Source: Scenedesmus sp. PABB004 (Eukaryota). From it: a DNA stretch of 64,000 nt. The first letter of the stretch is position 1. Each line of letters starts with the position of its first letter. Below the pieces are notes generated by a model. It was not told the origin of the DNA. It worked only from the letters and a program-made list of their open reading frames with translations, and made no database searches. The translations under genes and the position numbers were made by a program. Positions 1 through 64,000 of this stretch are shown piece by piece. The DNA lies in contig JABVCE010000012.1 of assembly GCA_014905635.1 (NCBI GenBank), positions 248,001 through 312,000 of the forward strand, written 5' to 3'.

Positions 1-714
1 ACATCGCGCAGGCTCAGCCTCTTGCCCCGCGCCCACTCCAGCACGGTGAGGTGGCCGGCGCGCGCTGCTGTGCAGCACACAAACCGCAGGTCCAGCCCCT
101 CGCCGCGCGCCCACTCCAGCACGGCGAGCTGGCCGTGCCCCGCTGCTGCGGAGCACACGTCACTGTCTATCTCGCAGCCGGCACCGCGCAGCCAGGCCAG
201 CCCCGGCACGTCGCCGCACGCCGCGCGCGCCCCGGCCAGCCGCCGCTGCTGCTCCTGCTGCCCCCACCGGTCACCTTGCACCGCCCGCCAGGCCTCCTGC
301 ACCGCCGCCAGCGACAGCTCGGGGCAACGCAGCGAGACGCGCCTGGCGCCGCGGAAGCGCTCGTGCGCCGCCTTGCAGACCTGCCTGGCGGTCCACGCCT
401 GCAGGGCCGGAGGCAGGAAGCTCAGGACGTGGAGCACGAGGGGCTCGGACAGCTCTGGCGGGCTGCGGGTGACACGGGGCGTGCGCGCAGGGCGGCGGTG
501 AGGGCGCGGCGCCTGCTGCAGCTGGCTGTGACTCGCTGCGCAGCGCCCGCCTGGCCAGGCAGCGCCGCCCAGGGGGGAGGGCGGGCGTGAGCAGCAGCAG
601 CGCCCACCTCGGCGCCGCCTCGTCGCCGCCGGATGCCTCGCACGCCGCCGCCAGCGCAACCGCCCGCGCGCGCGTGGTCGGCCCGGCGCGCCGCTTGCCC
701 GCCGGCGAAGACAT
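1..714 (-). CDS. F-box/ankyrin-repeat cassette gene, copy 1 (3' end runs off the window)
   Basis: Exon 1 714..608 (MSSPAGKRRAGPTTRAR...EAAP), phase-2 GT-AG intron 607..463, exon 2 from 462 reading SPPELSEPLVLHVLSFLPPALQAWTARQVCKAAHERF (F-box-like) then AAxxGQLAVLEWAR ankyrin-type repeats. Confidence 0.8.
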
Positions 715-1365
715 GGCGGGTTCTGGGGGCCTGCGTGCCAGAAGGGAACAGGCTGCGGCGCCGGCGGCGGGCGCGAGCGCGCGGGCGGCGTGAGCGCAGC
801 AGCAGCAGCGCGCGGCGCCCGCCCCCCCCCCCCCCAGCGCGGCGGCACGGCGGCGGGCCTGCCAGCGGCGCCCGGGGCGCGCAGGCCCGGCGGGTCACGC
901 CACACGCCCGCCCACCGCGCACCGCCGGCGCCCCCGCCGCGCACAGCAGCGGGCGCTGCGCAGCGCGGCCCGCCCGCCGCTGTTGCCTCCTCCCCGCCCG
1001 CCCGCGCGCGGCTCGCCTGGCGGTGCGCTGGGCGGGTCAGTCCGGCCGTCAGGCGCCCCCAGGTCCGCGCCCCGCCTTGCCGCGTGGGCGCCGCGTTCGA
1101 ACGCTGGGCGGCGGCAGCGGCGCAGTGCGTGCGGGAGCTGCGGGCCGCGGCCGGCGCTCGTGTGCGTGCGTGTGCGGCAGGGAGGCGCTGAGGGCGGCGG
1201 CTGGGCGGAGGGGCGGCGCGCGCGGGGGGCCTCCTCGGCGGCACGGCGTGGGCAGCCGGCCGGGCGGCGCCCTGGGCCCTGGGCCCTGCACCGCGCCGCC
1301 CGCGTGTTGCCGCTGCCGGGCGCGGGCGACGTGCCGCCCTCGTGCCGCCGCCCGCGGTCTGCGTT
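715..1365 (-). repeat. Conserved upstream non-coding module of the cassette, copy 1
   Basis: Reverse complement carries the shared blocks GCGGTGCAGGGCCCAGGG, CCCTCAGCGCCTCCCTGCC, CGCCAGGCGAGCCGCGCG and CTGCTGCGCTCACGCCGCC. Confidence 0.85.
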
Positions 1366-1398
1366 TTGTTGCGCGCGAGCGAGCGACAGCATGTCACC

Positions 1399-3045
1399 TC
1401 ACGCCTCGGCCGTGGCGTTGGCCGCCAGCACCTCGTCCAGGTGCGGCTGCCCCATCGCCCCCGCGCCGCCCGGCGGCCGCAGCCCGCGCAGGCGGCGGCG
1501 CAGCTCGTCGAGCGCGGGCGCCGGGAGCGCGCCGCCGGCGTCGCGCGCGCGCGCCCAGGTGCGCAGCGGGATGCGGAACTGCTGCGGCTCGGCGTTGGGG
1601 AAGTACACGTGGAAGGCGTTGGGGTTGAGCAGCGCCGCGGAGAGGCTGAACGCAGAGTTGCTCATCACCAGCACGTCCGCGGTCGCCATCTGCTGCCAGC
1701 TCCACGCGAGGTCGGCGCTCGGCAGCACCACGGGCGCCGCGAGCGCCGCCCCGAGCGCCGCGAGCTCCGCCGCGCCCTCGGCGCTGCCCGGGGCCTCGGT
1801 GTAGACCTCCACGCTGAACACACAGCCCGCCTCGTCCAGCTCCTGGGCAAGACGGCGGTGGCGGCAGGGCGGGGCGGTGCGCAGGGCGGCCCGCGGCCGC
1901 GCCCTCCCGCCCGTCCGGCTGGCCGATGCTGGCCCCCTGCTGTTGACCGCAGTTTGACCGACCGCCCGCGCGGCGCCCCCGCCGCCCCCCACGGGGCGGC
2001 CCAGCTCGGCTCCCGCCCACCTGCATGACGGACCGGACGACGTTGACGTAGTAAGACGGCGGCAGCAGCCGCTTCGCCCAGCGCGGCGACGCCGCGACGT
2101 CGCCGCGCCGCAGGTGCACGGCGACGCGCAGCCCGTGCAGCAGCCACGGCCGGCCGAGCTCCGGCGGCGCGAGGCTGTCGGGGCGGCGGCACACGAGCTT
2201 GGACTGCGGGCGCGGCGCGGGCGCGGGGTGAGCCGCGGCGTGCCGCGGGGTGCGCGGCGCGGCGGGCGCCCCCGCGCGATGCGTGCGTGCGCGCGCGCAC
2301 GTCGGGCGCGGTCGGGCGGAGCTGCTCCGGCGCGAGGAGCATGTCAGGGAAGCGGTGCACGATGCTGGTGGCAAACTCGGTGGAGATGAGCAGCGGCGTG
2401 CGCGCCGCCGCCGCGCCGGTGACGAGATCGACGAGCGTGAACCAGCCGAGCTTGGGCACGTGGCGGCGCTCCCACGCCGCGACGGCGCCCTCGGTCAGGT
2501 CCGAGGGCAGCGCCAGCAGGCGGCGCAGCTTGCCGAGCAGGCGCGCCTCGGGCGCGGCGGCGTCAAACGCGCAGTCGGCGCTGCGGAAGTGGACCTGCCC
2601 CCCGACGTGCCCCACGCACGTGAGCGGGCGGTGCACGTGGCGCAGGCCGAGCGCGCGCGCGACGGCGTAAATCTCCAGCATGCGCAGCGCCTGCGCGCCC
2701 ACGCCGTCGCGCAGCTCGTGCGCGTACACGAGCGCCACGTTCTGCTGCACCCAGGGGTCGGCGAACAGCGGCAGCTTGGGCCAGCCCAGCGGCGCCGCCG
2801 CCGGCTCCAGCGCGGCACCGCCGCTTTCGCCGCCGCCGGGCGGGCTGCCGCCGGCCGCTGCCGCTGCGTTGGCGACCGTGCCCGGCAGCTGCTCCTGCGG
2901 CGTGTGTGCGCGTGGGCAGGCTCCCAGCGGGGGGACGCCCCGCGCCGCGCAGAGCGGCAGAGCCTGCCAGCCCGCGCACCTGCGCTGCTGCTTGGCCAAG
3001 CGCCGCCGCCAGCAGGCAGCCCAGCACCACTCTCGCTGCGCGCAT
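1399..3045 (-). CDS. Putative secretory-pathway glycosyltransferase, GT11/alpha-1,2-fucosyltransferase-like (about 4 exons)
   Basis: Signal peptide MRAARVVLGCLLAAALGQAAAQ; motifs DGVGAQ (GxGNQ-like), VAVHLRRGD and MATADVLVMSNSAFS resemble the three fucosyltransferase-superfamily motifs. Confidence 0.6.
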
Positions 3046-3323
3046 GCGGCTGAGTGCGCACTTTCTTAGTCGTTGTCGCGGCATCCCGGCAGCTGGCGGG
3101 CAGCGCACGAGCGGCGGGAGCAGGCCGAGCGCTGCGCCGCTGCGTGTCAGGCGGGCGGCGCGCCTGGAGGCTCGCTGAGCTGTGGAAAGGCGCAAGTGAC
3201 ACGCGATCGGTTACTGCCAGGCCTGCGCGGAGCTCGCGGGGCTGCCAGCGCGCCGGGGCGAGCTGCTGTTGTCGTCGTCAGTTACGGAGCTAGCCGCTCT
3301 CGCCTCACCGCCCGTGCTCGGGG

Positions 3324-5105
3324 TCAGGCAAAATCAAACACCACCACCTCGCCGTCGTCGCCCGCCGCCGCGAGGCGCGCCGGCGGGAGCGGCTCAAGCG
3401 CGCGCACCGCGGCGCGGCCCGCGCGCAGCGTGTGCAGCGCCGCGCCGGCGGCGACGTCGATCACGACCACGCTGCCGTCGCCGCAGCCCGCCAGCGCGAG
3501 GCCGCCGACCGCGGCGAGGGCGTAGGGAAAGTCGGGCAGCGGCACGTGCGCGCGCGCCGCGTAGCCGGCGGCGGGGTCAAGCACTGCGAGCGAGCAGTCG
3601 GCGCCGGCGCTCACGACGGGGCCGCCCGTGGCGTCGGGGTCTGCGGCGGTGCGGCGCGCGAGTGTGGGTCAGCGGGAGAGCGCCGACGCAGCCAGCGGGC
3701 GCGGTGCGCGGCGCGGCGCGCGCACACCCGCGGCGATGGCGCCGACCGCGCCCCTGCCGCTCGCGCCCGCGTGCGCGGGCGCCGTCGCCGCGGCCGCGCC
3801 GCCGCCGCAGCGCGCGTCCCACGCGCGCACGCAGCCGTCCTGGCCGCCGCTGAGCAGCAGCGGCCCGTGCGCGCCCGCGGCGCCGCCGCTGGGGGCCAGG
3901 CGAGCGCGGTCACGTGGCCCGCGTGCGCCGCGGCGGCGCACCAGCTCGGCGCGCAGGCGGCCGCGTCCCACGCGATCAGACCGCCGCCGCGGTCCCCCGA
4001 CGCGAGCGCGCCGCCGCCCGGCGCCGCGGCGAGCTCGAGCACCGGCGCGCCGTGGCCGCGCAGCACGGCGGCCGCGCCGCGCGGTGGCCGCGCGCCGCCG
4101 ACGTCCCACAGCGCGACCGTCTTGTCGTAGCTGCACGACGCCGCGAGCTGGGCGGCGCCGCGCGGCGGCGCCGCCGCCGCGCCGCCCGGCTGCTCCAGGC
4201 CGCGCGGCGGCGGCGCGAGGCAGGCGACCTTTGCCACCGGGCCGGCGTGCGCGCCGCGCAGCTCGCTGCCGGCCGCGCCCGCCGCGGGCCAGAGCCACAG
4301 CCGCCCGTCCATGCCGCCCGAGAGCAGGCGCCCGCCCGGCAGCGCGCACGCGCACGTCACCCACCTGCGCGCGTGCGAGCGCCGGGCGCGGCCGGGCAGC
4401 GTCGGCGTCGGCCGCAGCGGGGGTGCTGGCCCCGTCGTGCGCATCCCCCCCCCCAGCTCACTCGCTGTGGCCGGCAGTCTTGGAGTAGAGCGTGCGCCGC
4501 CGCGTTGTGCTCTGCGCGTCCACGCCGTACAGGGCGTGGTCCGCGCCGCCCACCACGACCTCGCACCCGCCGTCGCGCCGCCAGAGCGCCGCGGAGCAGA
4601 GCAGCGGGCGCTCGCTGAGCCGCACGCGCGCGCCCGCCGCGTCGGCCGGCCCGCCGCGCCAGCCCGGCGCCAGGCGCTGCAGCTGCAGCTGTGGGGCCGG
4701 CTGCGCCGGCGCCAGCGGCTGCTCCTGCGCGAGCTGCTGCTGCCGCCGCTGCTGCTGCTGCGGCGGCGGCGGCGCGGCCGCCTTGCTGCGCGCGGCGGCG
4801 GGCGCGCCGCCCGCGCGCAGGCGCCCCGCCGCCGCGGCCGCGGGCGCGCGCTCGGGGCTCTGAGGGCTCTGAGGGCTGCCACCGCCGCCGGCGCTGAGCG
4901 ACGCAAAGGCCTGCTCGAAGCGCACCAGATAGGCATCGTTGGCCGCGTGCGACGCCGCCGCCGAGAGCGCGGCCCGCTGCTGCTGCGGCCGCGCCTGCTG
5001 CTGCTCCTGCTGCTCCGGCCCCCGCTGTGGCGGTGGCGGCGCCGCCGCGCGGCGGCCCTCCTTGAGGCGCACGAGCGCAGCGGCGCGCGGCGCGCCGTCG
5101 CCCAT
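3324..5105 (-). CDS. WD40-repeat protein with an apparent 1-bp frameshift near 3893
   Basis: Repeats GHSEWVT..LLSGGMDGRLWLW, ASCSYDKTVALWD, GHGAPVL..ASGDRGGGLIAWD, LLSGGQDGCVRAWD; ends GDDGEVVVFDFA-stop. Confidence 0.8.
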
Positions 5106-6996: not shown

Positions 6997-11303
<4,307 letters not shown>

Positions 11304-15978: not shown

Positions 15979-16033
15979 CTAGCTAGCTAGTAACCGCAAC
16001 GAGCGAGAGGCCGGCGATGGCGCGCCGCGAGCG

Positions 16034-16608
16034 CGGCGGTGCAGGGCCCAGGGCGCAGGCGCCGCCCGGCCGGCTGCCCACGCCGCCGCCGAGGAGCCCT
16101 CCCCGCGCGCGCCGCCCACAGCCGCCGCCCTCAGCGCCTCCCTGCCACACGCACACACACATGCGCCGGCCGCGGCCCACACACAGCTCCCGCACGCACG
16201 CGCCGCCGCCGCCCAGCGCCCGCCCCCGCCCGCGGCGCGCCCCTGGCCAGGCGGGGCGACGCGCGTCGGGCGCCTGACGGCCGTACCGGTCCGCCCACCC
16301 CAGCGCCAGGCGAGCCGCGCGCGCGGGCAGGCGGGGAGGGCAGCAGCGGCGGGCGGGCCGCGCTGCGCGGCGCCAGCTGCGGGCGGCGGGGGCTGCGGCG
16401 GTGCGCGGCGGGTGGGCGTGTCGCGTGGGCCGCCGGTACTGAGCGCCCCGGGCGTCGCTGGCAGGCCCGACGACGCGCCGCCGCGCCGCGGGGCGGGGGC
16501 GGGCGCCGCGCGCTGCTGCTGCTGCGCTCACGCCGCCCGCGCACTCGTGCCCGCTGCCGGCGCGCTGCCTGCTGCTCCCTGCTGGCCCGCAGGCGCCCAG
16601 TCGACGCC
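16034..16608 (+). repeat. Conserved upstream non-coding module, copy 2 (includes a predicted 5'UTR intron 16310..16592)
   Basis: Same blocks as the other copies; donor-like CCAG|GCGAGC, branch-like CTCAC, acceptor CCCGCAG just before the ATG. Confidence 0.85.
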
Positions 16609-17853
16609 ATGTCTGCGCCGGCGGGCAAGCGGCGCGCCGGGCCGACCACGCGCGCACGGGCGGCTGCAGCACCGGCGGCGGGCGAGGCGCCTGGCGGCGC
16701 AGAGCCGGCGCCGAGGTGGGCGCGCTGCTGATGCTGGTGCCCCCTGGGTGGCGCTGCCTGGCCACGCTGCGCAGTAAGCCTCAGCTGGCTGCAGCAGGCG
16801 CCGCGCGCCGCCTCACCGTCGCACCCGCGCGCCCGCCCGCCCCGCCCACGTCGCCAGCAGCCCGCCCATGCTCTCTGCGCCGGCGGCCCGGTGGCGCGCC
16901 GGGCCGACCACGCGCGCGCGGGCGGCGGTCATCAGGAGGTGGGCGCAGCGCTGCTGTGGACCCCTGGCTGCCTCGCTAGATGGGTGCTGAGCACTCAGCC
17001 ACCGCAGCGGGCGCCGCCTGTCGCCTGACGCCCCGGCGCCGCTGCCCGCTCGCCCCGCCGCAGCCTGCTGCCAGACCTGCCCGAGCCGCTCGTGCTCCAC
17101 ATCCTGAGCCTCTGGCCGCCGTCCCTGCGGGCGTGGTGCGCCAAGCTGGTCTGCAAGGCGGCGCGCGAGCGCTTCCGCGGCGCCAGGCGCGTCTCGCTGT
17201 GCTGCCCCGAGCTGCCGCTGGCGGCGGTGCAGGAGGCGTGGGGGGCGATGCAGGGTGATCGGTGGCAGCAGATGGGGCTGGCCGAGGCGCGCGCGGCGTG
17301 CGGCGACGTGGCGGGCCTGGTCTGGCTGCGCGGCGCGGGCTGCGACGTGCATATGATGCATCGCGCGTGCATGGAAGCAGCGCACTTCGGCCAGATCGCC
17401 GTGCTGGAGTGGGCGCACGGCGAGGGGGTGGACCTGCGGGGGGACGTGTGCCAAGTAGCAGCCGACAACGGGCAGCTGGGTGTGCTGCGCTGGGCGCGCG
17501 CGCAGACGCCGCCGCTGCCGTGGGGCCACGTGTGCTTCAGGGCTTCGCGGCGCGGCGACCTGGAGATGGTGCGCTGGGCGCGCAGCCAGGACGAGCCCGC
17601 GCCGTGGAGCGAGCACGTGTGCGGGACGGCGGCTATGCACGGGCACCTGGAGGCGCTGTGCTGGCTGCGCGCCAACGGCTGCCCGTGGGAGCGCGACTGG
17701 TGCGAGCGCGCGGCAGCACACAAGGGCCACGAGGCCGTGGCCGCGTGGGTCAGGGCGCAGCCGAGTGAGGTGCCAGGAGCAGTTGGCATGAGTGTTTCGG
17801 GAGCGGTTGGCAAGGACAGCGCGCACCTCAGCTCGGTCGTGGATCTGGATTAG
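16609..17853 (+). CDS. F-box/ankyrin-repeat cassette gene, copy 2 (duplicated first exon, extended C-terminus)
   Basis: Exons 16609..16715, 16861..16938, 17064..17853; LPDLPEPLVLHILSLWPP..AKLVCKAARERF; AAMHGHLEALCWLRANGCPW. Confidence 0.8.
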
Positions 17854-17965
17854 GGCGAGGCAAGGCAGGCGTGGCTGGGTGCATGCGCGGGGCGCGGTCT
17901 GCGGCATGGTGCGCGCGCGCGTGGGTGAGCAAGTTGACGCTGGCAGCGGCGCCCGGGCGGGGCGG

Positions 17966-18666
17966 CGCGCGCTGGCAACCAGCGTGACCGCGTGCGGCGC
18001 GCGCGTCGAGCGGGCCGCACGCACGCCCTGCCGCCGCCGGGGACTGGCGTTTGCCGCCCTGCGCTGCGCCACGCCGCGCCCGCCCGGCAGCAGCGCCACG
18101 CGGGCGGCGGTGCAGGGCCCAGGGCACAGGCGCTGCCCGGCCGGCTGCCCGCGCCGCCGCCGCCGAGGAGGCCCCCCGCGCGCGCCACCCCGCCGCCCAC
18201 ACCCGCCGCCCTCAGCGCCTCTCTGCCGCACACGCACGAACACAAGCGCCGGCCGCGCGGCCCACAGCTCCCGCACGCACCGCGCCGCCGCCGCACAGCG
18301 CCCGCCCGCTCGCCCGCGGCGCGCCCCTGGCCAGGCGGGGCGACGCGCGTCGGGCGCCTGACGGCCGGGCCGGTCCGCCCAGCGCACCGCAAGGCGAGCC
18401 GCGCGCGCGGGCGGGCGGGGAGGCAGCGGCGGGCGGCAGCGCTGCGCGGCGTCCGCTGCGGGCGGCGGGGGCACCGGCGGTGCGCGGTGGCGGGCGTGTG
18501 GCGTGGGCCGCCGGGCTTGCGTGCCTCGGGTGCCGCCGGCAGGCCCACCGCCGCGCCGCCGGGCCCGCGCCGGGGCGGGCGCGCGCTGCTGCTGCTGCGC
18601 TCACGCCGCCCGCCCGTTGCCGGCGCCTGCTGCTCTCTGGTGGCCTGTAGGCCCCCAGCACCCGCC
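17966..18666 (+). repeat. Conserved upstream non-coding module, copy 3
   Basis: Starts with GCGCGCTGGCAACC; shared blocks from about 18100. Confidence 0.85.
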
Positions 18667-19631
18667 ATGTCTGCTGCGCCGGCGGGCACGCGGCGCGCCG
18701 GGCCGACCACGCGTGCGCGGGCGGCCGCAGCGGCGGGCGAGGCGCCCGGCGGCGACGAGGCGGCGCCGAGGTGGGCGCGCAGCTGCTGCCACTGCTGGCG
18801 CCCCTGGATGTGACTGCCTGGCCAGGCGGGCGCTGAGCACTGAGCTGCAGCCAGCGCGCACCGTGCGCCGCCTCACCGCTGCACCCGCTCGCCCCGCCGC
18901 GCCGCCAGCAGCCCGCTGCCAGAGCTGGCCGAGTCCCTCGTGCTCCACGTCCTGAGCTTCCTGCCGCCGGCCCTGCAGGCGTGGGCCGCCAGGCTGGTCT
19001 GCAAGGCGGCGCGCGAGCGCTTCTGCGGTGCCACAGACGTCTCGCTGCGCTGCCCCGAGCTGCCGCTGGCGGCAGTGCAGGAGGCGTGGAGGGCGGTGCA
19101 GGGTGACGGGTGGCAGCAGCGGCGGCTGGCCAACGCGCGCGGGGCGTGCGGCGACGTGGCGGGGCTGGCCTGGCTGCGCGCCGCCGGCTGCAACATGGGC
19201 AGCGATGTGGGGTGCACAGCAGCATTTCGCGGCCAGCTCGCCGTGCTGGAGTGGGCGCGCGACAAGGGGCTGGACCTGGACGGCGTGTGCTGGGCAGCAG
19301 CCAACGGCGGGCAGATCGCCATGCTGCGCTGGGCGCGCGCGCAGTCGCCGCCGCTGCCCTGGGGGCCGACTGGGTGTGCTCTGAAGCTGCGGCGCACGGC
19401 GACCTAGAGATGCTGCGCTGGGTGCGCGGCCAGGCGGAGCCCGCGCCGTGGAGCGAGCACCTGTGCGGGACGGCGGCTCTGGACGGGCAGCTGGAGGCGC
19501 TGCGCTGGCTGCGCGCCAACGGCTGCCCGTGGCGGCGCGCTTCATGTGAGCAGCTGGCGGCTGGGCGTGGCCACGAGGCCGTGCTCGCGTGGATCCGGGC
19601 GCAGCCCGCGGCGCCGGACGACGGCGCTTAG
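18667..19631 (+). CDS. F-box/ankyrin-repeat cassette gene, copy 3 (1-bp frameshift in a G run near 19363; possible sequencing error)
   Basis: Exon 1 18667..18770, exon 2 from 18912 (SPLPELAESLVLHVLSFLPP); ankyrin repeats continue in a shifted frame (DWVCSEAAAHGDLEMLRW..GQLEALRWLRANGCPW). Confidence 0.75.
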
Positions 19632-25189: not shown

Positions 25190-25800
25190 CAGACCGCGCA
25201 CGGCGCACGGCTGGGCCCGCCCGGCAGCGCTGGCAACACGCGGGCGGCGGTGCAGCGGCCAGGGCCCAGGCGCCGCCCGGCCGGCTGCCCGCGCCGCCGC
25301 CGAGGAGGCCCCCCGCGCGCGCCGCCCCGCCGCCCACAGCCGCCGCCCTCAGCGCCTCCCTGCCATACACACACGAGCGCCGGCCGCGGCCCACAGCTCG
25401 CCCACGCACACGTGCTGCCGCCGCCCAGCGCCCGCCCCCGCCCGCGGCGCGCCCCTGGCCAGGCGGGGCGCGGGCGCCTGACGGCCGGTCCATCCAGCGC
25501 AGCGCCAGGCGAGCCGCGCGCGCGGGCAGGCGGGGAGGGCAGCGGCGGCGGGCCGCGCTGCGCAGCGCCCGCTGCGGGCGGCGGGGGCACTGGCGGTGCG
25601 CGGCGGGCGGGCTTGTGGCGTGAGCCGCCGGGCCTGCGCGCCCTGGGCGCCGCTGGCAGGCCCGTTCCCGCGCCGCCGCATCCGGGGGCGGCGGCGGGCG
25701 CCGCGCCCTGCCGCTGCTGCGCTCACGCCGCCCCCGCGCTCACGCCCGCTGCTGGCGCCGCCTGCTGCTCCCTGCTGGCCCGCAGGCCCCAGGTGGCGTC
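25190..25800 (+). repeat. Conserved upstream non-coding module, copy 4
   Basis: GGCAACCGGC, then shared blocks including CCCCTGGCCAGGCGGGGCG. Confidence 0.85.
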
Positions 25801-26836
25801 ATGTCTGCGCCGGCGGGCAAGCGGCGCGGTGGGCCGACCACGCGCGCGCGGGCGGCCGCAGCGGCTGGCGAGGCACCCGGCGGCAACGAGGCAGCTCCGA
25901 GGTGGGCGCGCAGCCGCTGCTGTTGCCCGCCTGACTGGTGCCGCTGGCCAGGCGGGGGCTGCGCAGCGAGTCACAGCCAGCTGCAGCAGGCGCCGCGCGC
26001 CGCCTCACCGCCGCCCCGCGCCGCCCTGCCCAGCCCACGTCGCCAGCAGCCCGCTGCCAGAGCTGCCCGAGTCCCTCGTGCTCCACGCCCTGAGCTTCCT
26101 GCCGCCGGCCCTGTAGGCGTGGCGTGCCAAGCTGGTCTGCAAGGCGGCGCACGAGCGCTTCCGCGGCGCCACGGTCATCTCAGCGGACTGCCCCGAGCTG
26201 CCGCTGGCGGCGGTGCAGGAGGCGTGGCGGGCGGTGCAGGGTGATGGGTTGAAGCAGCTGTGCAAGCTCGCCACGGCACGCGCGGCGTGCGGCGACGTGG
26301 CGGGGCTGGCCTGGCTGCACGGCGCCGGCTGCGCCATGGACTGGGGCGTGGGCCGGGAAGCAGCACGCGCCGGCCAGATCGCCGTGCTGGAGTGGGCGCG
26401 CGACCAGGGGCTGTGCCTGCACTTTGTGTGCGAGGCAGCAGCCAAGGGCGGGCAGCGGGCGGTGCTGCGCTGGGCGCGCGCGCAGACGCCGCCGGTGCCG
26501 TGGGGTGACTGATGGTGTGGCGTGTTCTACCTGGCTGCACGACGCGGTGACCTGGAGATGCTGCGCTGGGCGCGCGCCCAGGCTGAGCCCGCGCCGTGGA
26601 GCGAGCACGTGTGGACGGCGGTTCTGGACGGGCAGCTGGAGCGCTGCGCTGGCTGCGCGCCAACGGCTGCCCGTGGGAGCGCGACTGGTGCGAGTCTGCG
26701 GCGGCAGACAACGGCCACGAGGCCATGACCGCGTGGATCCGGGCACAGCCCGCGGCGCCGGACGGCTGGGACTCGGACGAGGACGAGCAGGAGGAGGGGG
26801 AGGGGGACGACGAGGGTGGGCTGCACGGCGCTTTAG
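25801..26836 (+). pseudogene. F-box/ankyrin-repeat cassette gene, copy 4, pseudogenised
   Basis: Exon 1 25801..25901, exon 2 from 26050; CAG>TAG at 26114, TGA near 26510, frameshift near 26640; acidic tail DSDEDEQEEGEGDDE. Confidence 0.8.
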
Positions 26837-26980: not shown

Positions 26981-27127
26981 CGCGCGCTGGCAACCGGCTG
27001 ACCGCGCGCCGCACGATCGGAGGCCCATGCGCGCTCGCTGCCGGGCACGCGCAGCACGGCCGCCGGCGCAGAGGCCCTCAGGACCCACGCCACGCGCGCA
27101 CGAGCGCCGGCCGCGGCCAATGGCTCC
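26981..27127 (+). repeat. Degenerate 5' fragment of the cassette module
   Basis: GCGCGCTGGCAACCGGCTGACCGCG and GCCCTCAG..GCACGAGCGCCGGCCGCGGCC match the module start. Confidence 0.6.
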
Positions 27128-27981: not shown

Positions 27982-37668
<9,687 letters not shown>

Positions 37669-38806: not shown

Positions 38807-39398
38807 CGCGCGCTGGCAACCGGCTGGCTGCGCAAGCGACGGCAGCAACTGGCGCGCGCGCACGCGCGCGCGCACGTGCGCACGCTCGCCGCCGTGGGCG
38901 GCGCAGTGCATGCACCTGGGCCCTGCGCAGGGCCCAGGGCGCAGGCGCCGCCCGGCCGGCTGCCCGCGCCGCCGCCGAGCAGGCCTCCCCGCGGCACCCC
39001 GCCGCCCACAGTCGCCGCCCTCAGCGCCTCCCTGCCACACGCACGCACGAGCGCCGGCCGCGGCCCACAGCTCCCCCACGCACACGCGCCGCCGCCGCTG
39101 CCCAGCGCCCACCCCACGCCCGCGGCGCGCCCCTGGCCAGGCGGGGCGCGGACCCGCGGGCGCCTGGTGACTAGGCCGTGCCGCCCAGTGCAGCGCCAGG
39201 CGAGCCGTGCGCGCGGGCAGGCAGTGAGGGGAGCGGCGGCGGCGGGCGGGCGGCGCTGCGCGGCACCCGCTGCGGGCGGCGGGGGCACCAGCGGTGCGCG
39301 GCGGGCGGGCGTGTGGCGTGGAACGCCGTGCCTGCGCGCCCCGAGCGTCGCTGGCAGGCTCGCCGCCGCGCCGCCGCGCCGTGGGGCGGGGCGCCGCA

Positions 39399-39456
<58 letters not shown>

Positions 39457-39542
39457 ACTGCGCTCACGCCGCCCGCGCGCTCACGCCAGCTGCCGCGGCG
39501 CTTGCTGCTCCCTGCCCGGCCCGCAGGCCCCCAGCACTCGCC
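38807..39542 (+). repeat. Conserved upstream non-coding module, copy 5 (CTG run expanded at 39401-39456)
   Basis: GCGCGCTGGCAACCGG, then shared blocks. Confidence 0.85.
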
Positions 39543-40494
39543 ATGTCCTCTGCGCCGGCGGGCAAGCGGCGTGCCGGGCCGACCACGCGCGCGCAGGCGG
39601 CCGCAGCGGCGGGCGAGCTGCAGCTCGCCGCCCAGCAGCTGCTGGGCGGCGCGGAGGCGGCGCCGAGGTGGGAACGCTGCTGCTGCTACTGCTGGCTGGC
39701 CATATGGGCGATGAGCAGCGAGTCACAGCCAGCTCCAGCACGCGCCGCCTCACCGCCGCACCCGCGCGCCCGCCCCGCCGCGCCGCCCCGCCAGCAGCCC
39801 GCTGCCGGAGCTGTCCATGCCCCTCGTGCTCCACGTCCTGAGCTTCCTGCCGCTGGCCCTGCAGGCGTGGACTGCCAGGCTGGTCTGCAAGGCGGCGCGC
39901 GAGCGCTTCCACGGCGCCACGGCCGTCTCGCTGCGCTGCCCCGAGCTGCCGCTGACGGCGGTGCAGGAGGCGTGGCGGGCGGTGCAGGGTGGCGGGTGGG
40001 AGCGGCGCTGGCTGGTCAGGGCGCGCGTGGCGTGTGGCGACGTGGCGGGGCTGGCCTGGCTGCGCGGCGCCGGCTGCGACCTGCAGCACGTGGTCGACGA
40101 AGCAGTACATCACGGCCAGGTCGCTGTGCTGGAGTGGGCGCGCGACGAGGGGCTGGACCTGCGGGACGTGTGCTACTTTGCAGCCGCAGCCGGGCAGCTG
40201 GGCGTGCTGCGCTGGGCGCGCGCGCAGACGCCGCCGCTGACATGGGACGAACACGTGTGCGCCTGGGCTGCGTGGCGCGGCGACGTGGAGATGCTGCGCT
40301 GGGCGCGCACCCAAGCCGAGCCCGCGCGGTGGGCCGAGAGCGTGTGCGAGGCGGCGGCTCTGCATGGGCACCTGGAGGCGCTGCGCTGGCTGCGCGCCAA
40401 CGGCTGCCCGTGGCAGCGCGCCACGTGCGAGCGCGTTGCGGCGCTCGAGGGCCACGAGGCTGTGGTCGCATGGATCCGCGAGCAGCCCGAGTGA
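39543..40494 (+). CDS. F-box/ankyrin-repeat cassette gene, copy 5 (intact)
   Basis: Exon 1 39543..39667, phase-2 intron, exon 2 39798..40494: LPELSMPLVLHVLSFLP..RLVCKAARERF..AALHGHLEALRWLRANGCPW..QPE-stop. Confidence 0.85.
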
Positions 40495-40572
40495 GTTTGG
40501 GGCGGGAGAGGGGTTGAACCTCCTGCCGCGCCAGCACTTGCAGCGACCGCGGCGACGCGCGCCGCCGCCGGC

Positions 40573-50210: not shown

Positions 50211-50462
50211 GCGAGCGAGCGGGGCGCGCGACACGGGGGAAGGGGAGGGGGGCTGACTGTGACGTCACGCAGTCCGCGCAGGTGCGCTGCATGGGCGGTC
50301 GAGTTTTTCCGTTGCCAGCGCACGCGCCGCCCTCGCCCCTCGCCCCTCGCCCCGTCTCGCCAGCAACATCACTCGGAGCTTGCTGTCTCCCAGTCCGAGC
50401 TGGAGTCGTCATCCTCCCCACATCCCCCCGTCCCCCTCCCCTCCCCGTCCCCCTCGTCCGAG

Positions 50463-51392
50463 TCAGAGCCTGTCCTCCGGCACCGCGGGCTGCGCCCGGA
50501 TCCACGCGACCACGGCCTCGTGGCCGTTGTGTGCTGCGCAGACCTCGCAGTTGCTGCGCCACCACGGGCAGCCGCCGGCACGCAGCCAGCGCAGCACCTC
50601 CAGCTGCCCGGCCGCAGCCGCCGTCTCGCACGTGAGCTCGTCCAGCGGCATGGGCTCGGCCTGGGCGCGCGCCCAGCGCAGCATCTCCAGGTCGCCGCGC
50701 CGCGCAGCATTGTGGCACTCAGCGCCGCCCCAGGGCAGCGGCGGCGCCTGCGCGCGCGCCCAACGCAGCACCGCGAGCTGCCCGCCCACGGCTGCTGCGT
50801 TGCACACGCCCCCCAGGTCCAGCCCCTCGTCGCGCGCCCACTCCAGCACGGCGAGCTGGCCGTGCTCCGCTGCTGCCCAGCCCACGCTGCCCATGGCGCA
50901 GCCGGCGCCGTGCAGCCAGGCCAGCCCCGCCATGTCACCGCACGCCACGCGCGCGCTGGCCAGCTGCCGCTGCTTCATCCCATCACCCTGCACCGCCCGC
51001 CACGCCTCCTGCACCGCCGCCAGCGGCAGCTCGGGGCAGCGCAGCGAGACGGCCGTGGCGCCGTGGAAGCGCTCGCGCGCCGCCTTGCAGACCAGCCTGG
51101 CAGTCCACGCCTGCAGGGCCGGCGGCAGGAAGCTCAGGACGTGGAGCACGAGGGGCTCGGGCAGGTCCCGCCACAGGCTGCTGGCGGTGGCGCGCGCGGG
51201 GCAGGGCGGGCGGGCGGTGAGGCGGCGCGCGGCGCGTGCTGGCTGCAGTTCGGCGCTCAGCGCCCGCCTGGCCAGGCAGCACCAGCAGCAGCCCGCCCAC
51301 CTCGCCTCCACGTCCTCGCCGCTGGCCGCCTCGCCCACCGCCGCTGCCGTGGTCGGCCCGGCGCGCCGCGCGCCCGCCGGCGCAGCAGACAT
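50463..51392 (-). CDS. F-box/ankyrin-repeat cassette gene, copy 6 (intact)
   Basis: Exon 1 51392..51301, exon 2 51177..50463: LWRDLPEPLVLHVLSFLPP..RLVCKAARERF..GQLEVLRWLRAGGCPW. Confidence 0.85.
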   Translation of the reverse strand: MSAAPAGARRAGPTTAAAVGEAASGEDVEARWAGCCWCCLARRALSAELQPARAARRLTARPPCPARATASSLWRDLPEPLVLHVLSFLPPALQAWTARLVCKAARERFHGATAVSLRCPELPLAAVQEAWRAVQGDGMKQRQLASARVACGDMAGLAWLHGAGCAMGSVGWAAAEHGQLAVLEWARDEGLDLGGVCNAAAVGGQLAVLRWARAQAPPLPWGGAECHNAARRGDLEMLRWARAQAEPMPLDELTCETAAAAGQLEVLRWLRAGGCPWWRSNCEVCAAHNGHEAVVAWIRAQPAVPEDRL

Positions 51393-52120
51393 GGCACGGC
51401 CTGGGTGCCTGAGTGGCAGCAGGGAGCAGCGGGCGGGGCACCGGCGACGTGCGGGTGAGCGTGCGGGCGGCGTGAGCGCAGCAGCAGCAGCAGGCACCTC
51501 AAAGAGTGAGTGCTCGCTCGCCCGGCGCCCCCCACCCCGGGGCGGCGGCGCGCGGCGGGCCTGCCAGCGGGCCCGGGGCGCGCAGTCCCGGCCGCCCACG
51601 CAACACGCCCGCCCGCCGCGCACCGCCGCAGCCCGCACCGCCCGCAGCGGCGCCTCCCAGCGCAGACCGCCCGCTGCCGCTGCCTCCCCGCCCGCCCGCG
51701 CGCGCGGCTCGCCTGGCGCTGGGAGGAACGGCCCCGCCGTCACGCGCCCGACGCGCGTCGCCCCGCCTGGCTAGGGGCACGCCGCGGGTGGGGGCGGGCG
51801 CTGGGCGGCGGCGCGGCGCGGTGCGTGCGGGAGCTGTGGGCGCCGGCCGGCGCTCGTGTGCGTGTGTGGCGGGGGGTGGGGGGGGGGGGCTGTGTGCGGC
51901 GGCTGTGGGCGGCGGGCAGCGCGCGCCGGAGGCCTCCTCGGCAGCGGCGCGGGCAGCCGGCCGGGCGGCGCCTGGGCCCTGCACCGCCGCCCGCCCGCCG
52001 ACGCCGTGTGGGCGGCGACGCGCTGCCGCCGCCAGCGCCCGGTGGGCACGGCGAGCTGTCCGCCTCCGCCGCTGGGCCCTGCACGGCGGTCACAGCGCGA
52101 CACCGATCGGCCGGTTGCCC
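51393..52120 (-). repeat. Conserved upstream non-coding module, copy 6
   Basis: Reverse complement shows GGCAACCGG and the shared blocks. Confidence 0.8.
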
Positions 52121-52239
52121 ACACCTGCCGGCCGCAAGCTTGACGCACCGCACACGCGCACTCCCACCAAGGTGCCAGCCCGTCAGCGCTCGTTCCAGTG
52201 CCGTGCCGCGACACACCGCGGCCTCCACGCGGCGCGGAG

Positions 52240-52601
52240 CTAGCTGGCCTTGGGCCCGCACCTCGGCAGCGGCAGCAGCAGGTTGGTGCGCGCCACATAG
52301 TCCTGATACTCCTGCGCGCGCGGCAGTGGTCGGTGGCGGCGCGTGAGGGCCGAGGCCGAGGCGCTGCACGGCGCAAACGGGCAGGCGCGCTGCGCGGCGC
52401 CGCCAGCCAGCGCCGCGCCCCCAGCCCCGCGCCGCGCCGCGCCGCGCGCCTGCGTGGTGCCCCAGCGCTGCTGCGCCTGCTTCTCCTGCAGCGGCACGCC
52501 GCTGACGAAGCGCAGCAGCAGCATCACGAACAGCGGGCTCGCGACGCTCGCGAGCTGCGGCCCGGACAGGCCGCCTGAGGCAAACACAAACATGCCCCAC
52601 C

Positions 52602-52648
<47 letters not shown>

Positions 52649-53707
52649 TGCGGGCGGGTGCCGCCGAGTCGGCGCGTGTGCCACAGCTCCACGCTCAGCC
52701 CTCGGCCCCTCAAACCCAAAACCCTGAACCCTGGAAAATGTCCAACCCCAGGGCAAAAAGCCCCACCAGACGAGCATCTCGCCGCAGTAGTTTGGGTAGC
52801 GCGAGAGGGACCAGAGCCCGCTGTCGATGAACTTGCCGCGGTTGGCGGGGTCCTGCGCGCGGCGTGGCCGCGGGCGGGAGCGGGCACGGAGGTCGGCGGC
52901 CGCGGCGGCGGCGAGGCGAGGCCCCCCCCCCCAGGCCAGGCCAGCCCAGCCTCCCCAGCCCAGCCCAGGGGCGCGCCTGCTTGAAGGCAAACTTCTGCCC
53001 GTCCGCCGTGGCCTCCAGCACCAGGCCGGCCGCATACACCGCGCCGCCGACCACGTCGCTCCACAGCAGGCGCGACGGGCCGCCGGCCGTGGTCGTGTTG
53101 AGCAGCAGGACGGGCAGCAGCGTGGTGTACACCCACACCGCCTGCGCGCGCCCGCGCCGGCGGCGGCGGCTGCGTGTGTGCTCGCGCGCTTGGGCGCGCC
53201 GCCGCTGTCGCTGCCGCACATGCCCACCCCCAAAACCATCACACCCAGCAACACCCACACCCAGACCCACACCCACAGCTCGCACACACGCAACACACAG
53301 CACACAGCACGCACAGCGCACACACAGCCCCCCGGCACGCGCCTGCATGGTCCAGTAGACCCAGAAGGTGAGCGGCTTGTGCTTGGCCTCGTCGAAGCGC
53401 GAGTCGTGCCCCGTGCGCAGCACACGCAGCACGAGGAAGCCGCCCAGGCGCAGCGCCCACGCGGCGACAAACACGGTCGCCACGATCTGCGGCGGGGGCG
53501 CGGCGGGGCGGGGTGGGGAGCGCGGGCGGGCGGGTGGGCAGCGCGGCGGGGCAGGGGCGGCGCGGGGGCGGTGTGGTGCGGGGCGCGGCGCGGCGAGGGG
53601 CGCGCCGCGCCTTGCGCGCGTGCTGCGACTGCGCCGTCAGCAGGGAGCCGACCGCCAGCGCGGCGAAGCTGCCCGTGCCGAGCAAGTCGTAAAACTTCTC
53701 CGTCTGT

Positions 53708-53738
<31 letters not shown>

Positions 53739-54248
53739 CGCGGCGGCGGCGTCGGGGCGGCAGCAGCGTGCGCCGGGCGGCGCCCGGCAGCGCTGCTGGC
53801 AGCGCCGCCAACGTCAGCGCGCATGCGCCGACCTTGAGCAGCGCCGAGACCGCCCAGCCGCCCCACTGGATCGCGACGTCGATGATGAGCCAGGAGAGCA
53901 TGCCCCACTGCTTGAACGTGACCTGGTCGATGACCGACGCGGACGCAAAGCTCGCCGCCGCCGCCGGCCGCGCGCCGCCGAGCAGCGTCGCCGCGAGCAG
54001 CGACCCCGCGCGCGCCGGCGCCCTGCGGGGCGGGGCGGAGCGCGGAGCGCGTGGGCGACGGGCGAGGAGAGGGGCGCCGGGCACGCCGCGGCGGCGGCGG
54101 CGCGCGGCGCGCGCCTGAACGTGCGCAGCAGCGACGCGCCGCTGCCCCCGCCGCCCGCGGCGCCAGAGAGGCTGCGGCGCGCTGACACGCTCCCACCGGC
54201 CGCGACACGCATCTGGCTCGCCAGCCGGGCCAGGGCGCGCAGGGGCAT
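52240..54248 (-). CDS. DUF1295 / steroid 5-alpha-reductase-like membrane protein, multi-exon
   Basis: [18 protein letters not shown]....[52 protein letters not shown]. Confidence 0.88.
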
Positions 54249-61286: not shown

Positions 61287-62169
61287 CGCCGGCGGCGTGC
61301 GGCGCGCGGCGCCGTGCGCCCCGCGCGGGGCGGGCGCCGGCGCCGCGGCGGCGCAGTCATACTACCGCCTGGGTGGTTTGAAGGGGGCCCTGAACCCCAC
61401 CTTCCTTGTCCTTGCTTGCGCCATGCTTGACGGCTGCAGCGGCGCCCGGCGGCGGCAGCCGTGGCCGGCGCGCGCGCGCGCCCGCGAGCGAGCATGTGCC
61501 TCGGGAGCGGCGCGTGTGGCACGCGCGCGCCACGCGTGTGGGTGGGCGGGCGGGGCGGCCGCGTGTAGCTAGCTAGCCAGCGCCAGTGGCCGCCCGCCTG
61601 CGCGTGCGTTGCGTTGCCCGCCTGCGTTTTGTGCGGTGGTGGTGGTGGCGGCATGGCATGGTGGGCGGGGCGCGGGAGCGGGCCTCTGGCCGCCGCCACG
61701 CGACGACAACGGGGAACACGGGGGGAGGACCCCGGGGCCGGTCCCAACGCACTTGCGCCTGTGGGGCGAACCGACGCGCGTGTGTGCACAGCCAACGCAA
61801 CGGCACGCGCGCCACGCGAGCGGCGTGCCGCCGCCGGCTGACGATCGCCGGCGGGGCGCCGCGAATAACCGCCGCGGCCACCGGCGCAGCAGCAGTTTGT
61901 GCATCAGAGCAGACACCACACCAGACGCGCGTGTGTTTGTATGTTGACCGTTGCTGCTGCCCGCTCTCTCCACGCCCTCGCGAGTTGCCCCCCGCGCGAT
62001 GGGAGCACCACCCTGACCCAACGACACAACCCCGACCCAACGCACGTGGGCGGCGGGGCAGCAGTAGGAGCCTAGGCGTGCCTGCGTGCTGCCGAGGCGC
62101 TGCGCGGCTTTGTTGCGTGTGACGCGCGGAGATCGCGACGCCCCCCCCCCCTGACCGCATGCGCGCGTG

Positions 62170-62837
62170 CCGCCGGGCGCTGGCGGTGGCAGCGCGTCGC
62201 CCAGCGCGCCGCCCGGCCGCTGCGCCACGCGGGCGGCGCGGTGCAGGGCCCAGGGCGCAGGCGCCGCCCGGCCGGCTGCCCGCGCCGCCGCCGAGGAGGC
62301 CCCCGCGCGCCGCCCCGCCACCCACAGCCGCCTCCCTCAGCGCCTCCCTGCCGCACACGCACACGCGCACGCGCCGGCCGCGCCCCTCACAGCGCCCGCA
62401 CGCGCCGCGCCACTGTTCGAATCGCAGCCTGCCCCCACCCGCGCCGCGCCCCTGGCCAGGCGGGGCGAGGACCTGCGGGCGCCTGGTGACTAGGCCGTGC
62501 CGCCCAGCGCAGCGCCAGGCGAGCCGCGCGCGCGGGCAGGCGGGGAGGGCAGCGGCGGGCGGGCGCGCCGCGCTGCGCGACGCTTGCTGCGGGCGGCGGG
62601 GGCACCGGCACGGCGCGGCGGGCGGGCGTGTGGCGTGGGCCGCCGGGACTGCGCGCCTCGGGCGTCGCTGGCAGGCCCGCCGCCGCGCCGCCGCGCCGGG
62701 GGCGGGGGGGGGGGGGGGCGGCGGGCGCCGCGCGCTGCTGCTGCTGCTGCTGCGCTCACGCCGCCCGCGCTCGCCCCCGCTGCTGCCGGTGCCCCGCCCG
62801 CTGCTCCCTGGTCGACCGCAGGCTGTCAGGTGGCACC
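62170..62837 (+). repeat. Conserved upstream non-coding module, copy 7
   Basis: Shared blocks; GGGCGCCTGGTGACTAGGCCGTGCC variant shared with copy 5. Confidence 0.85.
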
Positions 62838-63782
62838 ATGTCTGCTGCGCTGGCGGGCAAGCGGCACGCCAGGCCGACGACGAGCGTGCTGGCAGCGGCT
62901 GCAGCTGCGGCGGGCGAGGCGCCTGGTGGCGCGGAGGCGGCGCCGAGGTGGGCGCGCTGCTGCTGCTGGTGCCCCCTGGCTGGTGCTGCCTGGAACGGCA
63001 CGCGCTGCCCTCCAGGCACCACCGCCCACAGCAGGCGCCGCCTGACGGCTTGCCGCCTGCCCCGCGCGCCCCGTCCTGCGCCGCCAGCAGCCCGTGAGCG
63101 GAGCTGTCCGACCCCCTCGTGCTCCACGTCCTGAGCTTCTGGTCGCTGGCCCTGCGGGCATGGACCGCCAGGCTGGTCTGCAAGGCGGCGCGCGAGCGCT
63201 TCCGCGGCGCCAGGCGCGTCTCGCTGCGCTGCCCGGAGCTGCCGCTGGCGGCGGTGCAGGAGGCGTGGCGGGTGGTGCCGGGTGACAAGGGGGGGAGAGG
63301 TGGCCAGCGCGCGCGCGGCGTGCGGCGACGTGGCGGGGCTGGCCTGGCTGTGCAGCGCCGGCTGCGACATGGATGACAGTGTGGGCTGGGCAGCAGCGGA
63401 GCACGGCCAGCTTGCCGTGCTGGAGTGGGCGCGCGGCGAGGGGCTGGACCCGGGGGGCGTGTGCAGCGGAGCAGCCGCGGGCGGGCAGTGGGCGGTGCTG
63501 CGCTGGGCGCGCGCGCAGACGCCGCCGGCGCCCTGGGGCAAGTACGTGTCCTCCTGGGCTGCGCTGCACGGCGACCTGGAGATGCTGCGCTGGGGTCGCG
63601 CCCAGGTGGAGCCCGCGCCGTGGGACGGCGAAGCGTGTAGGGTGGCGGCTCTGTCTGGGCAGCTTGAGGTGCTGCGCTGGCTGCGCGCCAACGGCTGCCC
63701 GTGGCAGCGCGCCGAGTGCGAGCGCTTGGCGGACCGGCGCCACGCGGCCGTGGTCGCGTGGATCCAGGCGCAGCCCGAGTGA
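62838..63782 (+). pseudogene. F-box/ankyrin-repeat cassette gene, copy 7, probably pseudogenised
   Basis: Exon 1 62838..62947; exon 2 from 63091 has an in-frame TGA at 63095 (TGG in copy 6) and a frameshift in the G run near 63290; ends QPE-TGA. Confidence 0.75.
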
Positions 63783-64000
63783 GCTGTCGGGAGCAGCCTG
63801 CGTGAGCTCACTCGAGTGTGTCGGGAGGGCTGGCAAGCAGCGCGCGCCGGCCAGCTTGCCGTGCTGGAGCGGGCGCGCGGCGAGGGACGTTGACATGCGC
63901 GGCGTGTGTGCGTTCGGTGGGCAACTGTCGGCGCAGGCAGGCGCGAGTGGCGCACGGTCACGTGGTCAACGGCCGCCGATGAGTTTTTAGGAGGGGGGAC

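Follow-up and report, generated by a model that had tools for sequence, protein, structure and literature searches.

Within a 64,000-nt stretch of the genome of Scenedesmus sp. PABB004 (contig JABVCE010000012.1, positions 248,001 to 312,000), hereafter the window, we identified seven copies, c1 to c7, of a unit of approximately 1.6 kb that encodes an ankyrin-repeat protein with an F-box-like motif. The copies were recovered by searching the window with blastn, using c5 and its flanks as the query. A first-pass annotation had described a dispersed cassette in seven copies, and this count was borne out; the cores that we delimited lie no more than about 110 nt from the positions that it gave. 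The copies and one related fragment are as follows.

Core 1-1297 (extent 1..1338), minus strand: c1, truncated by the window start; leader about 717-1296, ATG at 714, donor at 607, exon 2 running down from 462, with no break in the frame before the window ends.
Core 16034-17769 (extent 16019..17827), plus strand: c2; ATG at 16609, donor at 16716, exon 2 frame open over 17038-17766, extra exon-1-like piece at 16843-16942.
Core 18106-19614 (extent 18033..19622), plus strand: c3, immediately after c2; ATG at 18667, donor at 18771, exon 2 from 18912, one frameshift at about 19335-19395.
Core 25246-26758 (extent 25195..26806), plus strand: c4; ATG at 25801; pseudogene with two in-frame stops and frameshifts.
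Core 38919-40495 (extent 38869..40495), plus strand: c5, intact; leader 38919-39542, exon 1 39543-39667, intron 39668-39797, exon 2 39798-40494.
Core 50480-51988 (extent 50426..52050), minus strand: c6, intact; leader 51393-51988, exon 1 51301-51392, intron 51178-51300, exon 2 50463-51177.
Core 62236-63783 (extent 62166..63848), plus strand: c7; ATG at 62838; decayed, with a stop after the acceptor and a frameshift between the F-box/linker and ankyrin parts.
63827-63911, plus strand: solitary ankyrin-repeat fragment downstream of c7, 84% identical to 63383-63463.

Every pair among the seven copies is 75 to 84% identical. When the copies were aligned with MAFFT together with 400 nt of flanking sequence on each side, mean pairwise identity was highest in the leader (0.85) and exon 1 (0.84), followed by exon 2 (0.82) and the intron (0.78). 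In both flanks it fell to 0.43, which is the background level at 79% GC. This drop to chance level indicates that the repeat unit is real and sharply set off from its surroundings. A sensitive blastn search of the c2-c3 spacer and the other flanks returned only background matches of 58 to 70% everywhere, with no common spacer.

The anatomy of the unit is shared by all copies. A noncoding leader of 555 to 624 nt precedes an aligned ATG and an exon 1 of 92 to 125 nt. The length of exon 1 is always 2 mod 3, and the intron is therefore in phase 2. The donor is GAG|GTGGG in all seven copies, while the acceptor is CAGCAG in six and CGCAG in c1. Exon 1 encodes a peptide of the MS..AGKRRAGPTTRAR type, and exon 2 comprises about 230 codons. 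These results uphold the earlier description of a leader of about 600 bp, a short first exon, and a phase-2 intron at a single site. The same annotation ascribed the full gene structure to every copy. Leader, exon 1, intron, and ankyrin exon can indeed be recognized in all seven, but within the window only c5 and c6 are intact two-exon genes. Copy c1 is open as far as the window reaches, and the whole unit is open in a fused public gene model (P0132). In c2, exon 2 is open, yet the second exon-1-like piece has been inserted; the structure suggests that part of one unit was joined to another that had been cut off shortly ahead of its ATG. The single frameshift in c3 could be an assembly error. 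We also considered the leader as coding DNA and rejected this possibility, given that it had no Pfam match on either strand and that only 21% of its indels are multiples of 3.

In the alignment of copy ends, the unit starts at ..GGCGGTGCAGGGCCC and finishes at ..GCGCAGCCCG, within G+C-rich flanks. The 5′ end is ragged: similarity extends 0 to 75 nt upstream of the common GTGCAGGGCCCAGGGC, farthest in c3, c6, and c7 and least in c2 and c5. At the 3′ end there are two types. Copies c2, c5, and c7 stop directly after ..AQP, in line with the earlier statement that similarity ends near the stop codon. That statement does not extend to a uniform end, as c3, c4, and c6 continue into an acidic tail, which is also present in the paralogues P0004 and P0005. 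No downstream acidic-tail exon was found for c5 or c2. A GTGAG that overlaps the stop codon in c2, c5, and c7 could be a candidate splice donor to a further exon.

Three additional sequence features were noted in or near the copies. The leader of c5 contains a (CTG)n run of about 20 units at approximately 39391-39455 that is much shorter in the other copies, a microsatellite expansion. About 100 nt upstream of c6, at 52069-52084 on the minus strand, there is a partial second copy of the 5′ start motif, GTGCAGGGCCCAGCGG, a possible trace of a small duplication where the copy meets its flank. Finally, a motif of the form GCGCGCTGGCAACC(G/A)GC..GACCGCG lies 100 to 230 nt outside several copies, either upstream or downstream (17969-17980, 26984-26995, 38810-38821, and 50310-50321 on the minus strand, with a variant at 25227). 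For the GCGCGCTGGCAACC motif, found near four copies, there were 8 matches at no more than one mismatch compared with 3.3 expected, and 8 matches were reached in 1 of 100 shuffles.

Because the intron and the upstream DNA are retained, and at exon-level identity over some 600 nt of upstream sequence, we conclude that the unit was copied as DNA and not by retroposition, as had been argued at first pass. Nothing in the copies identifies them as retrocopies: the intron is present in seven of seven, 555 to 624 nt of upstream DNA is held in common, and no A-rich tail was found at any of them. The alternative is that an unspliced, intron-retaining transcript was retroposed and that the copies are expressed by read-through from the upstream gene. 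The ragged ends would then match variable start and poly(A) sites, and all seven copies are co-oriented with, and close behind, the gene upstream. But similarity stops at the stop codon, leaving almost no 3′ untranslated region (UTR), and confinement to one region is unexpected for an RNA intermediate. The leaders contain only 1 ATG in 4,093 nt, which would also fit a transcribed origin, but this depletion was not significant when compared with simulation (P = 0.12), and the window held no reverse transcriptase. We therefore regard retroposition as very improbable.

The relationships among copies point to a burst. In a DNA tree of the seven copies, the topology was a star, in which none of the four inner branches was supported and the end branches measured 0.10 to 0.19 substitutions per site. 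Although adjacent, c2 and c3 were no closer to each other than to distant copies. A protein tree of 35 units gave a similar picture, with strong support for 0 of 32 inner branches and with the window copies intermixed with units from elsewhere on the contig. Two units from other contigs, P0004 and P0138, nested within this radiation. Tandem partners were sisters in the fbiC model and non-sisters in two other cases (c2/c3 and units u1/u2 of HT031_004026). Star-like trees are expected when copies arise in a burst from one source, and not when they arise by stepwise tandem duplication.

The trees also bear on whether an old F-box/ankyrin tandem array was later broken up by inversions and other rearrangements, making the interspersion secondary. 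Tandem pairs and runs do occur (c2-c3, and the seven annotated proteins that carry two to four units each), and the family is regional. Yet the intervening genes are conserved housekeeping genes, each in its own gap, and farther out than about 75 nt the flanks of different copies have nothing in common. Moreover, noncoding identity remains at about 85%, and the tree is star-like with no nesting by distance, in which the neighbors c2 and c3 are not closest relatives. A dismantled array is accordingly improbable.

The best protein matches were hypothetical proteins of Scenedesmus sp. PABB004. To characterize the distribution of the family, we used a hidden Markov model of the window exon 2 sequences, which matched 27 of 27 collected PABB004 proteins and yielded at least 36 units. 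At least 31 of these, in 22 annotated proteins, are on the window's own 1.24 Mb contig (1,235,393 bp), where the locus tags seen for the units run from 003954 to 004038. Copies c4, c5, and c7 were not found in the annotation, and adding them brings the contig to at least 34 units. Among the matches listed, the only close units on other contigs were P0004 and P0138, whose contigs measure 434 kb and 796 kb, respectively; three more distant units lie on two further contigs. Confinement of the family to this locus, which the first-pass annotation held would count against its proposal, was thus not observed, since units occur elsewhere on the contig and two close ones lie off it. In a published table, where the assembly is listed as GCA_014905635.1, the PABB004 genome is given as 39.8 Mb with 7,092 gene models, 78.5% GC, and 1.31% repeats (PMC12571836). 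At the mean model density of the assembly, the roughly 85 gene models spanned by the cluster would correspond to about 0.5 Mb.

We searched the copies and the window for hallmarks of mobile elements. With respect to terminal inverted repeats (TIRs), the longest inverted match per copy was 7 to 9 nt, and none was recognized in single copies. For the consensus ends, the terminal score was 16.0 against a shuffle mean of 15.8, and 259 and 298 of 500 shuffles reached the observed values in the tests for TIRs and terminal direct repeats. Candidate target site duplications (TSDs) were 6 to 9 nt within copies and 6 to 11 nt in the cross-copy control, a comparison that has low power at 10 to 19% divergence. 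We found no long terminal repeat (LTR) and no poly(A) tail at the copies. Helitron-type ends (5′-TC and CTRR-3′) were not seen when the aligned ends were inspected by eye, with no dedicated Helitron finder having been run. Among 264 open reading frames (ORFs; stop to stop, ≥170 amino acids) in the window, there was no transposase, reverse transcriptase, integrase, Rep/helicase, or viral hallmark domain (Pfam, E ≤ 1e-4). Nothing in the window thus identifies the unit as a cut-and-paste transposon, whether a miniature inverted-repeat transposable element (MITE) or a Pack-type element, and the earlier statement that no transposase, TIR, LTR, or TSD is visible holds after these scans and end tests.

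The designation of the unit as mobile is harder to evaluate. Copying at the DNA level, the star-like trees, and the two close units off the contig are in its favor; the ends, being ragged by 0 to 75 nt, are not as sharp as the term implies. True mobility of the cassette is unproven. Rolling-circle (Helitron-like) and tyrosine-recombinase (Crypton-like) systems are examples that leave no TIR or TSD, and a nonautonomous element of such a kind could have captured a host gene and been moved in trans, with a strong preference for linked sites. This explanation accommodates a near-constant unit dispersed in seven copies on both strands between unrelated genes, as well as the star-like phylogeny and the nesting of units from two other contigs inside the radiation. 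It would also suit the frequent non-sister relationship of tandem partners (c2/c3 and HT031_004026 u1/u2), the appearance of c2 as a 5′-truncated unit joined to a partial one, and the solitary repeat fragment. The ragged 5′ ends and the two types of 3′ end speak against it, however, as do the lack of TIRs or terminal direct repeats, the lack of TSDs above control (at the low power stated), the absence of 5′-TC/CTRR-3′ ends by eye, and the lack of a transposase-like ORF in 64 kb. Furthermore, the carried gene appears to be under selection, the family is overwhelmingly regional, with one contig carrying 31 of the 33 close or related units that annotation allowed us to place, and repeats are reported to account for only 1.31% of the genome (PMC12571836). 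On balance, we consider such an element a credible minority explanation, with a probability well under even.

The protein encoded by the cassette is an ankyrin-repeat protein by both profile and fold. Scores for Ank_4 (PF13637) were 35.2 bits in c5, 31.0 in c6, 26.4 in c2, and 24.1 in c7, compared with a cutoff of 22.7. Against the Protein Data Bank (PDB), the family profile matched designed ankyrin proteins at an E value of 3.5e-24, as well as espin, FEM1, and ankyrin-1. An AlphaFold2 model of c6 exon 2 had a mean predicted local distance difference test (pLDDT) score of 89.3, rising to 95 to 98 over the repeats, and showed a solenoid of paired helices from residue 82 to residue 228. In a Foldseek search with this model, the top matches were all ankyrin-repeat proteins, at a probability of 1.00 and with template modeling (TM) scores of up to 0.55. 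The ankyrin repeats that had been proposed from inspection were thereby confirmed.

Evidence for an F-box is weaker and comes from several directions. The F-box-like N-terminal part of the cassette protein includes the motif LPEPLVLHVLSFLP, and LPEPLVLHVLSFLPPAL, in the region of the LPxE(L/I)..I(L/F)..L motif, is nearly invariant across 31 units. Weak matches to the F-box or F-box-like profiles fell on the same residues in six of eight members and covered only profile positions 1 to 30 of 47. F-box scores of this kind were 18.4 in P0004, 17.7 in P0003, 16.9 in P0005, 13.9 in c1, and 13.0 in c3. A profile of the N-terminal 95 residues returned eight matches in the PDB. Seven of these were F-box proteins aligned at their F-box, with weak E values of 0.025 to 1.1 (FBXO2 at 0.025; MAX2, FBXO42, and FBXL3 at 0.2 to 1.1). 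In the c6 model, three N-terminal helices occupy residues 7-15, 19-29, and 31-36, with pLDDT scores of 65 to 73. Given sub-threshold Pfam scores together with weak but consistent PDB matches, we call the protein F-box-like. The outright F-box assignment made at first pass is thus retained insofar as the matches agree with one another, and not as membership by Pfam cutoffs. Judging from these motifs, the cassette protein is probably a substrate receptor of an SCF (SKP1-cullin-F-box) ubiquitin ligase.

Patterns of substitution and of insertion and deletion suggest that the gene has been under selection. Indel lengths were multiples of 3 in 100% of cases in exon 1 and 67% in exon 2, compared with 21% in the leader and 38% in the intron. 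Indel events numbered 0.63 per 100 columns in exon 2 versus 2.2 to 2.9 in the leader and intron. Because frameshifting indels were approximately eightfold rarer in exon 2 than in the leader, we conclude that selection kept the reading frame open. Across 31 units, the F-box/linker part had near-zero entropy, with LPEPLVLHVLSFLPPALQAW..LVCKAARERF....SLRCPELPLAAVQEAW almost invariant. Positions of high entropy were periodic and lay around the AA motif and the loop of each ankyrin repeat. Among c1, c2, c5, and c6, the ratio of nonsynonymous to synonymous substitution (dN/dS) averaged 0.8 to 2.2. We take these patterns to reflect purifying selection that acted on the repeat framework and on the adaptor side while the predicted binding surface diversified. 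By this comparison of sequences, the cassette appears to be a family of host genes kept by selection and not a repeat in decay.

F-box and ankyrin multigene families are described for Pandoraviruses and other giant viruses in the accessible part of the literature (PMC5995976), and the first-pass annotation had linked the cassette to such viruses. Among the matches listed, one Pandoravirus salinus ankyrin protein was found at an E value of 1.7e-36, and the combination of F-box and ankyrin repeats also occurs in Chloropicon, Raphidocelis, Balamuthia, and many metagenomic proteins. The cassette resembles the Pandoravirus, Chloropicon, Raphidocelis, and Balamuthia proteins in the flavor of its repeats (..GHL.VL.WAR....CPW..), and some of these carry both an F-box and ankyrin repeats; a Pfam F-box is recorded for the relatives P0049, P0105, P0164, and P0171. 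Identity to these proteins is only 35 to 53%. The window copies are nuclear genes with a spliced structure, set in DNA that resembles the host's, and no viral context was found around them. The giant-virus link is therefore weak: the nearest relatives among the matches listed are algal (Raphidocelis, Chloropicon, Chrysophaeum, and Tribonema), and a scan of viral contigs with a single protein as the query, which has low sensitivity, found no viral relative.

These data make it very improbable that the units are a remnant of an integrated giant virus, a virus-derived family, or an artifact of assembly. The abundance of this ankyrin type in Pandoravirus and metagenomic proteins is what would be expected of a viral source. 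Against this, GC content is uniform at 74 to 83% across the window, the neighbors are spliced cellular genes, and the 264 ORFs contain no viral hallmark domain. An artifact might be suspected in a long-read assembly at 78.5% GC, but a difference of about 20% between copies means that they did not come from reads that were collapsed or duplicated.

From left to right in the window, the gene order is c1; a WD40 gene; the mitochondrial pyruvate carrier (MPC); Xaa-Pro aminopeptidase; an FHA gene; c2 and c3; an unnamed gene; a WD40 gene; c4; a giant gene with VWA and DUF11 domains; c5; thimet oligopeptidase; a zf-U1 gene; an unnamed gene; c6; a DUF1295 gene; IFT46; a CBM20 gene; an unnamed gene; and c7. 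Neighbors were identified by the Pfam scan of the same 264 ORFs. They are conserved, unrelated housekeeping genes of the single-copy type, and copies lie on both strands among them, as had been stated from inspection. In all seven cases, the copy is on the strand of the gene 5′ to it, as judged from a strand track of third-position GC periodicity together with mapped public models. The 3′ neighbor is convergent in three of four known cases. Copies can be very close to their neighbors: the gap from the stop of the upstream gene to the start of the copy is about 35 nt for c2 (after the FHA gene), about 60 nt for c1, and about 190 nt for c6, while about 80 nt separate the stop of c5 from that of the thimet oligopeptidase gene, which is convergent with it. 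The simplest reading is that copies persist only 3′ of genes, where no promoter is disrupted. Since either orientation within a tail-to-tail gap gives co-orientation with a 5′ gene, the seven-of-seven pattern largely follows if copies survive only there.

Taken together, we favor, with slightly better than even confidence, a host gene cassette that was amplified by DNA copying in a burst and has since been subject to birth-and-death evolution. The unit would be a complete cassette, consisting of about 600 nt of upstream DNA with the presumed promoter and 5′ UTR, followed by a two-exon gene whose product would carry an F-box-like motif at its N terminus, then a conserved linker, and then about five ankyrin repeats. 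One short burst in PABB004 would have copied this DNA into nearby short intergenic gaps 3′ of ordinary genes, sometimes beside an existing copy. This burst would account for the 34 or more units that are now spread across roughly 85 gene models on the contig, and for a few escapes to other contigs. The copies would then have diverged independently, by 10 to 19% per lineage, and some would have died, while selection kept the frame, the F-box/linker part, and the repeat framework, and predicted binding positions of the ankyrin repeats diversified.

The copying itself may have been a short-range copy-and-paste of a roughly defined segment, with ends nibbled before joining. We think it nearly an even bet that the mechanism was host break repair or template-switch copying from a nearby paralogue. 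Mobilization in trans by an unrecognized recombinase, transposase, or rolling-circle type system has a distinctly smaller chance of being correct, while still deserving serious consideration. The combination of ragged ends, regional confinement, a repeat-poor genome, and no hallmark argues against a classical transposon. It is possible, though unlikely, that the cassette represents a mobile, gene-carrying unit of a new kind, in which a promoter-plus-gene module is copied or excised as a defined segment with nibbled ends, without TIRs or TSDs, and mostly within a few hundred kilobases. If true, it would be a "locally hopping" defense-type gene that seeds receptor variants behind ordinary genes and is moved by an unrecognized recombinase or by circular DNA intermediates.

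Several observations count against the account of a selected host cassette spread by DNA copying. First, the end points of the unit are reused within about 75 nt, which would not be expected of random repair events and points to a defined segment, an element, or an intermediate. Second, the co-orientation of seven of seven copies amounts to about six independent cases (P about 0.016). Third, the close off-contig units P0004 and P0138 mean that the range is not strictly local, and all unit counts are lower bounds that rest on an annotation with many chimeric models. Fourth, a whole-exon dN/dS near or above 1 is also compatible with relaxed constraint, and conservation of the leader, which is as strong as that of the exons, is not separable from functional constraint. 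Stop-free frames were dropped as evidence of selection, because 39% of neutral simulations stay open. Last, the best F-box-like (PF12937) score, 21.8 in c6, is below the cutoff of 24.3, and the best F-box (PF00646) score is 17.3 against 20.5. All members are below the Pfam gathering cutoffs for the F-box, and c5 and c2 gave no F-box match in the Pfam profile scan. When the N-terminal domain was modeled alone, pLDDT was 69, with helices at 47 to 63, which is low confidence.

A lineage-specific family of F-box-type receptors is a known kind of family, whereas its element-like mode of expansion here is unusual. Available portions of the literature describe the F-box families of plants and nematodes as lineage specific and as evolving by "genomic drift" or birth and death, with positive selection in the substrate-binding domain (PMC3030570, PMC8120010). 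The cassette family resembles them in joining an N-terminal F-box-type motif to variable protein-binding repeats, in the regional clustering of recent paralogues, in its pseudogenes, and in the contrast between a conserved F-box side and a fast-evolving binding side. It departs from them in that its copies are interspersed every one to four genes among housekeeping genes rather than in simple tandem arrays, and in its common unit ends, its approximately 600 nt of upstream DNA, and its star phylogeny. Its binding domain, moreover, is ankyrin, and its F-box is sub-threshold in Pfam.

Two other classes offer a comparison. Surveys of plant genomes recognize "proximal" duplicates, which are paralogues a few genes apart. 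Like these, the cassette paralogues are a few genes apart in one region and were copied as DNA; unlike the usual pairs, they comprise at least 34 units with a burst-like tree and a constant unit. Gene-carrying nonautonomous DNA elements include Pack-MULEs (Pack-type Mutator-like elements), gene-capturing Helitrons, and Cryptons. By description only, the cassette is like all three in being a host-like gene with its intron, carried as DNA in dispersed copies on both strands, and like Helitrons and Cryptons in lacking TIRs and in having absent or minimal TSDs. It differs from Pack-MULEs in being without the TIRs that MULEs need and from Helitrons in being without 5′-TC/CTRR-3′ ends (by eye). Unlike any of these elements, the cassette has no sharp termini and no autonomous partner in the window, and its gene is whole, has its own upstream DNA, and appears to be under selection.

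F-box receptor families are classic examples of fast-evolving families of the arms-race type, but the way in which they gain new copies can seldom be observed. In this case, promoter-side DNA, intron, and gene can all still be read as one copying unit, and the burst is recent enough to date. In a small, repeat-poor genome, a single 1.6 kb unit has nonetheless come to follow dozens of ordinary genes across roughly 0.5 Mb, which makes the locus well suited for asking whether dedicated mobilizing machinery or repair-based copying was responsible. Viral proteins are an obvious guess as targets of the diversifying ankyrin surfaces.

A practical consequence is that the cassette has corrupted public annotation. 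Of 27 gene models examined, at least 18 run a housekeeping gene together with one or more copies, and these chimeric models bypass real stop codons by calling introns. Such fusions may partly account for the low gene count reported for the genome, 7,092 (PMC12571836). Models that map to the window include the following.

3-5105, minus strand: P0132, a WD40 gene with further exons fused to c1 (C-terminal part).
12099-19404, plus strand: "SLC4A1AP" (P0130), the FHA gene fused to c2 and c3.
40576-45908, minus strand: HT031_003995, thimet oligopeptidase joined to the zf-U1 gene, with oligopeptidase exons 99-100% identical to the window.
50466-54248, minus strand: HT031_003998, the DUF1295 gene fused to c6, 100% identical.

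Scans of the window for Rfam families and tRNAs detected neither. The giant gene between c4 and c5 (27715-37000, plus strand) encodes a VWA domain followed by many DUF11 repeats. DUF11 occurs mainly in surface proteins of prokaryotes, so its presence in a green alga is unusual. A tandem array with an 8-nt period lies within this gene at approximately 30100-30450. In the region of the Xaa-Pro aminopeptidase gene, there are long microsatellites of the GA/GT dinucleotide type at 9400-9630 and 7438-7562, which are presumably intronic.

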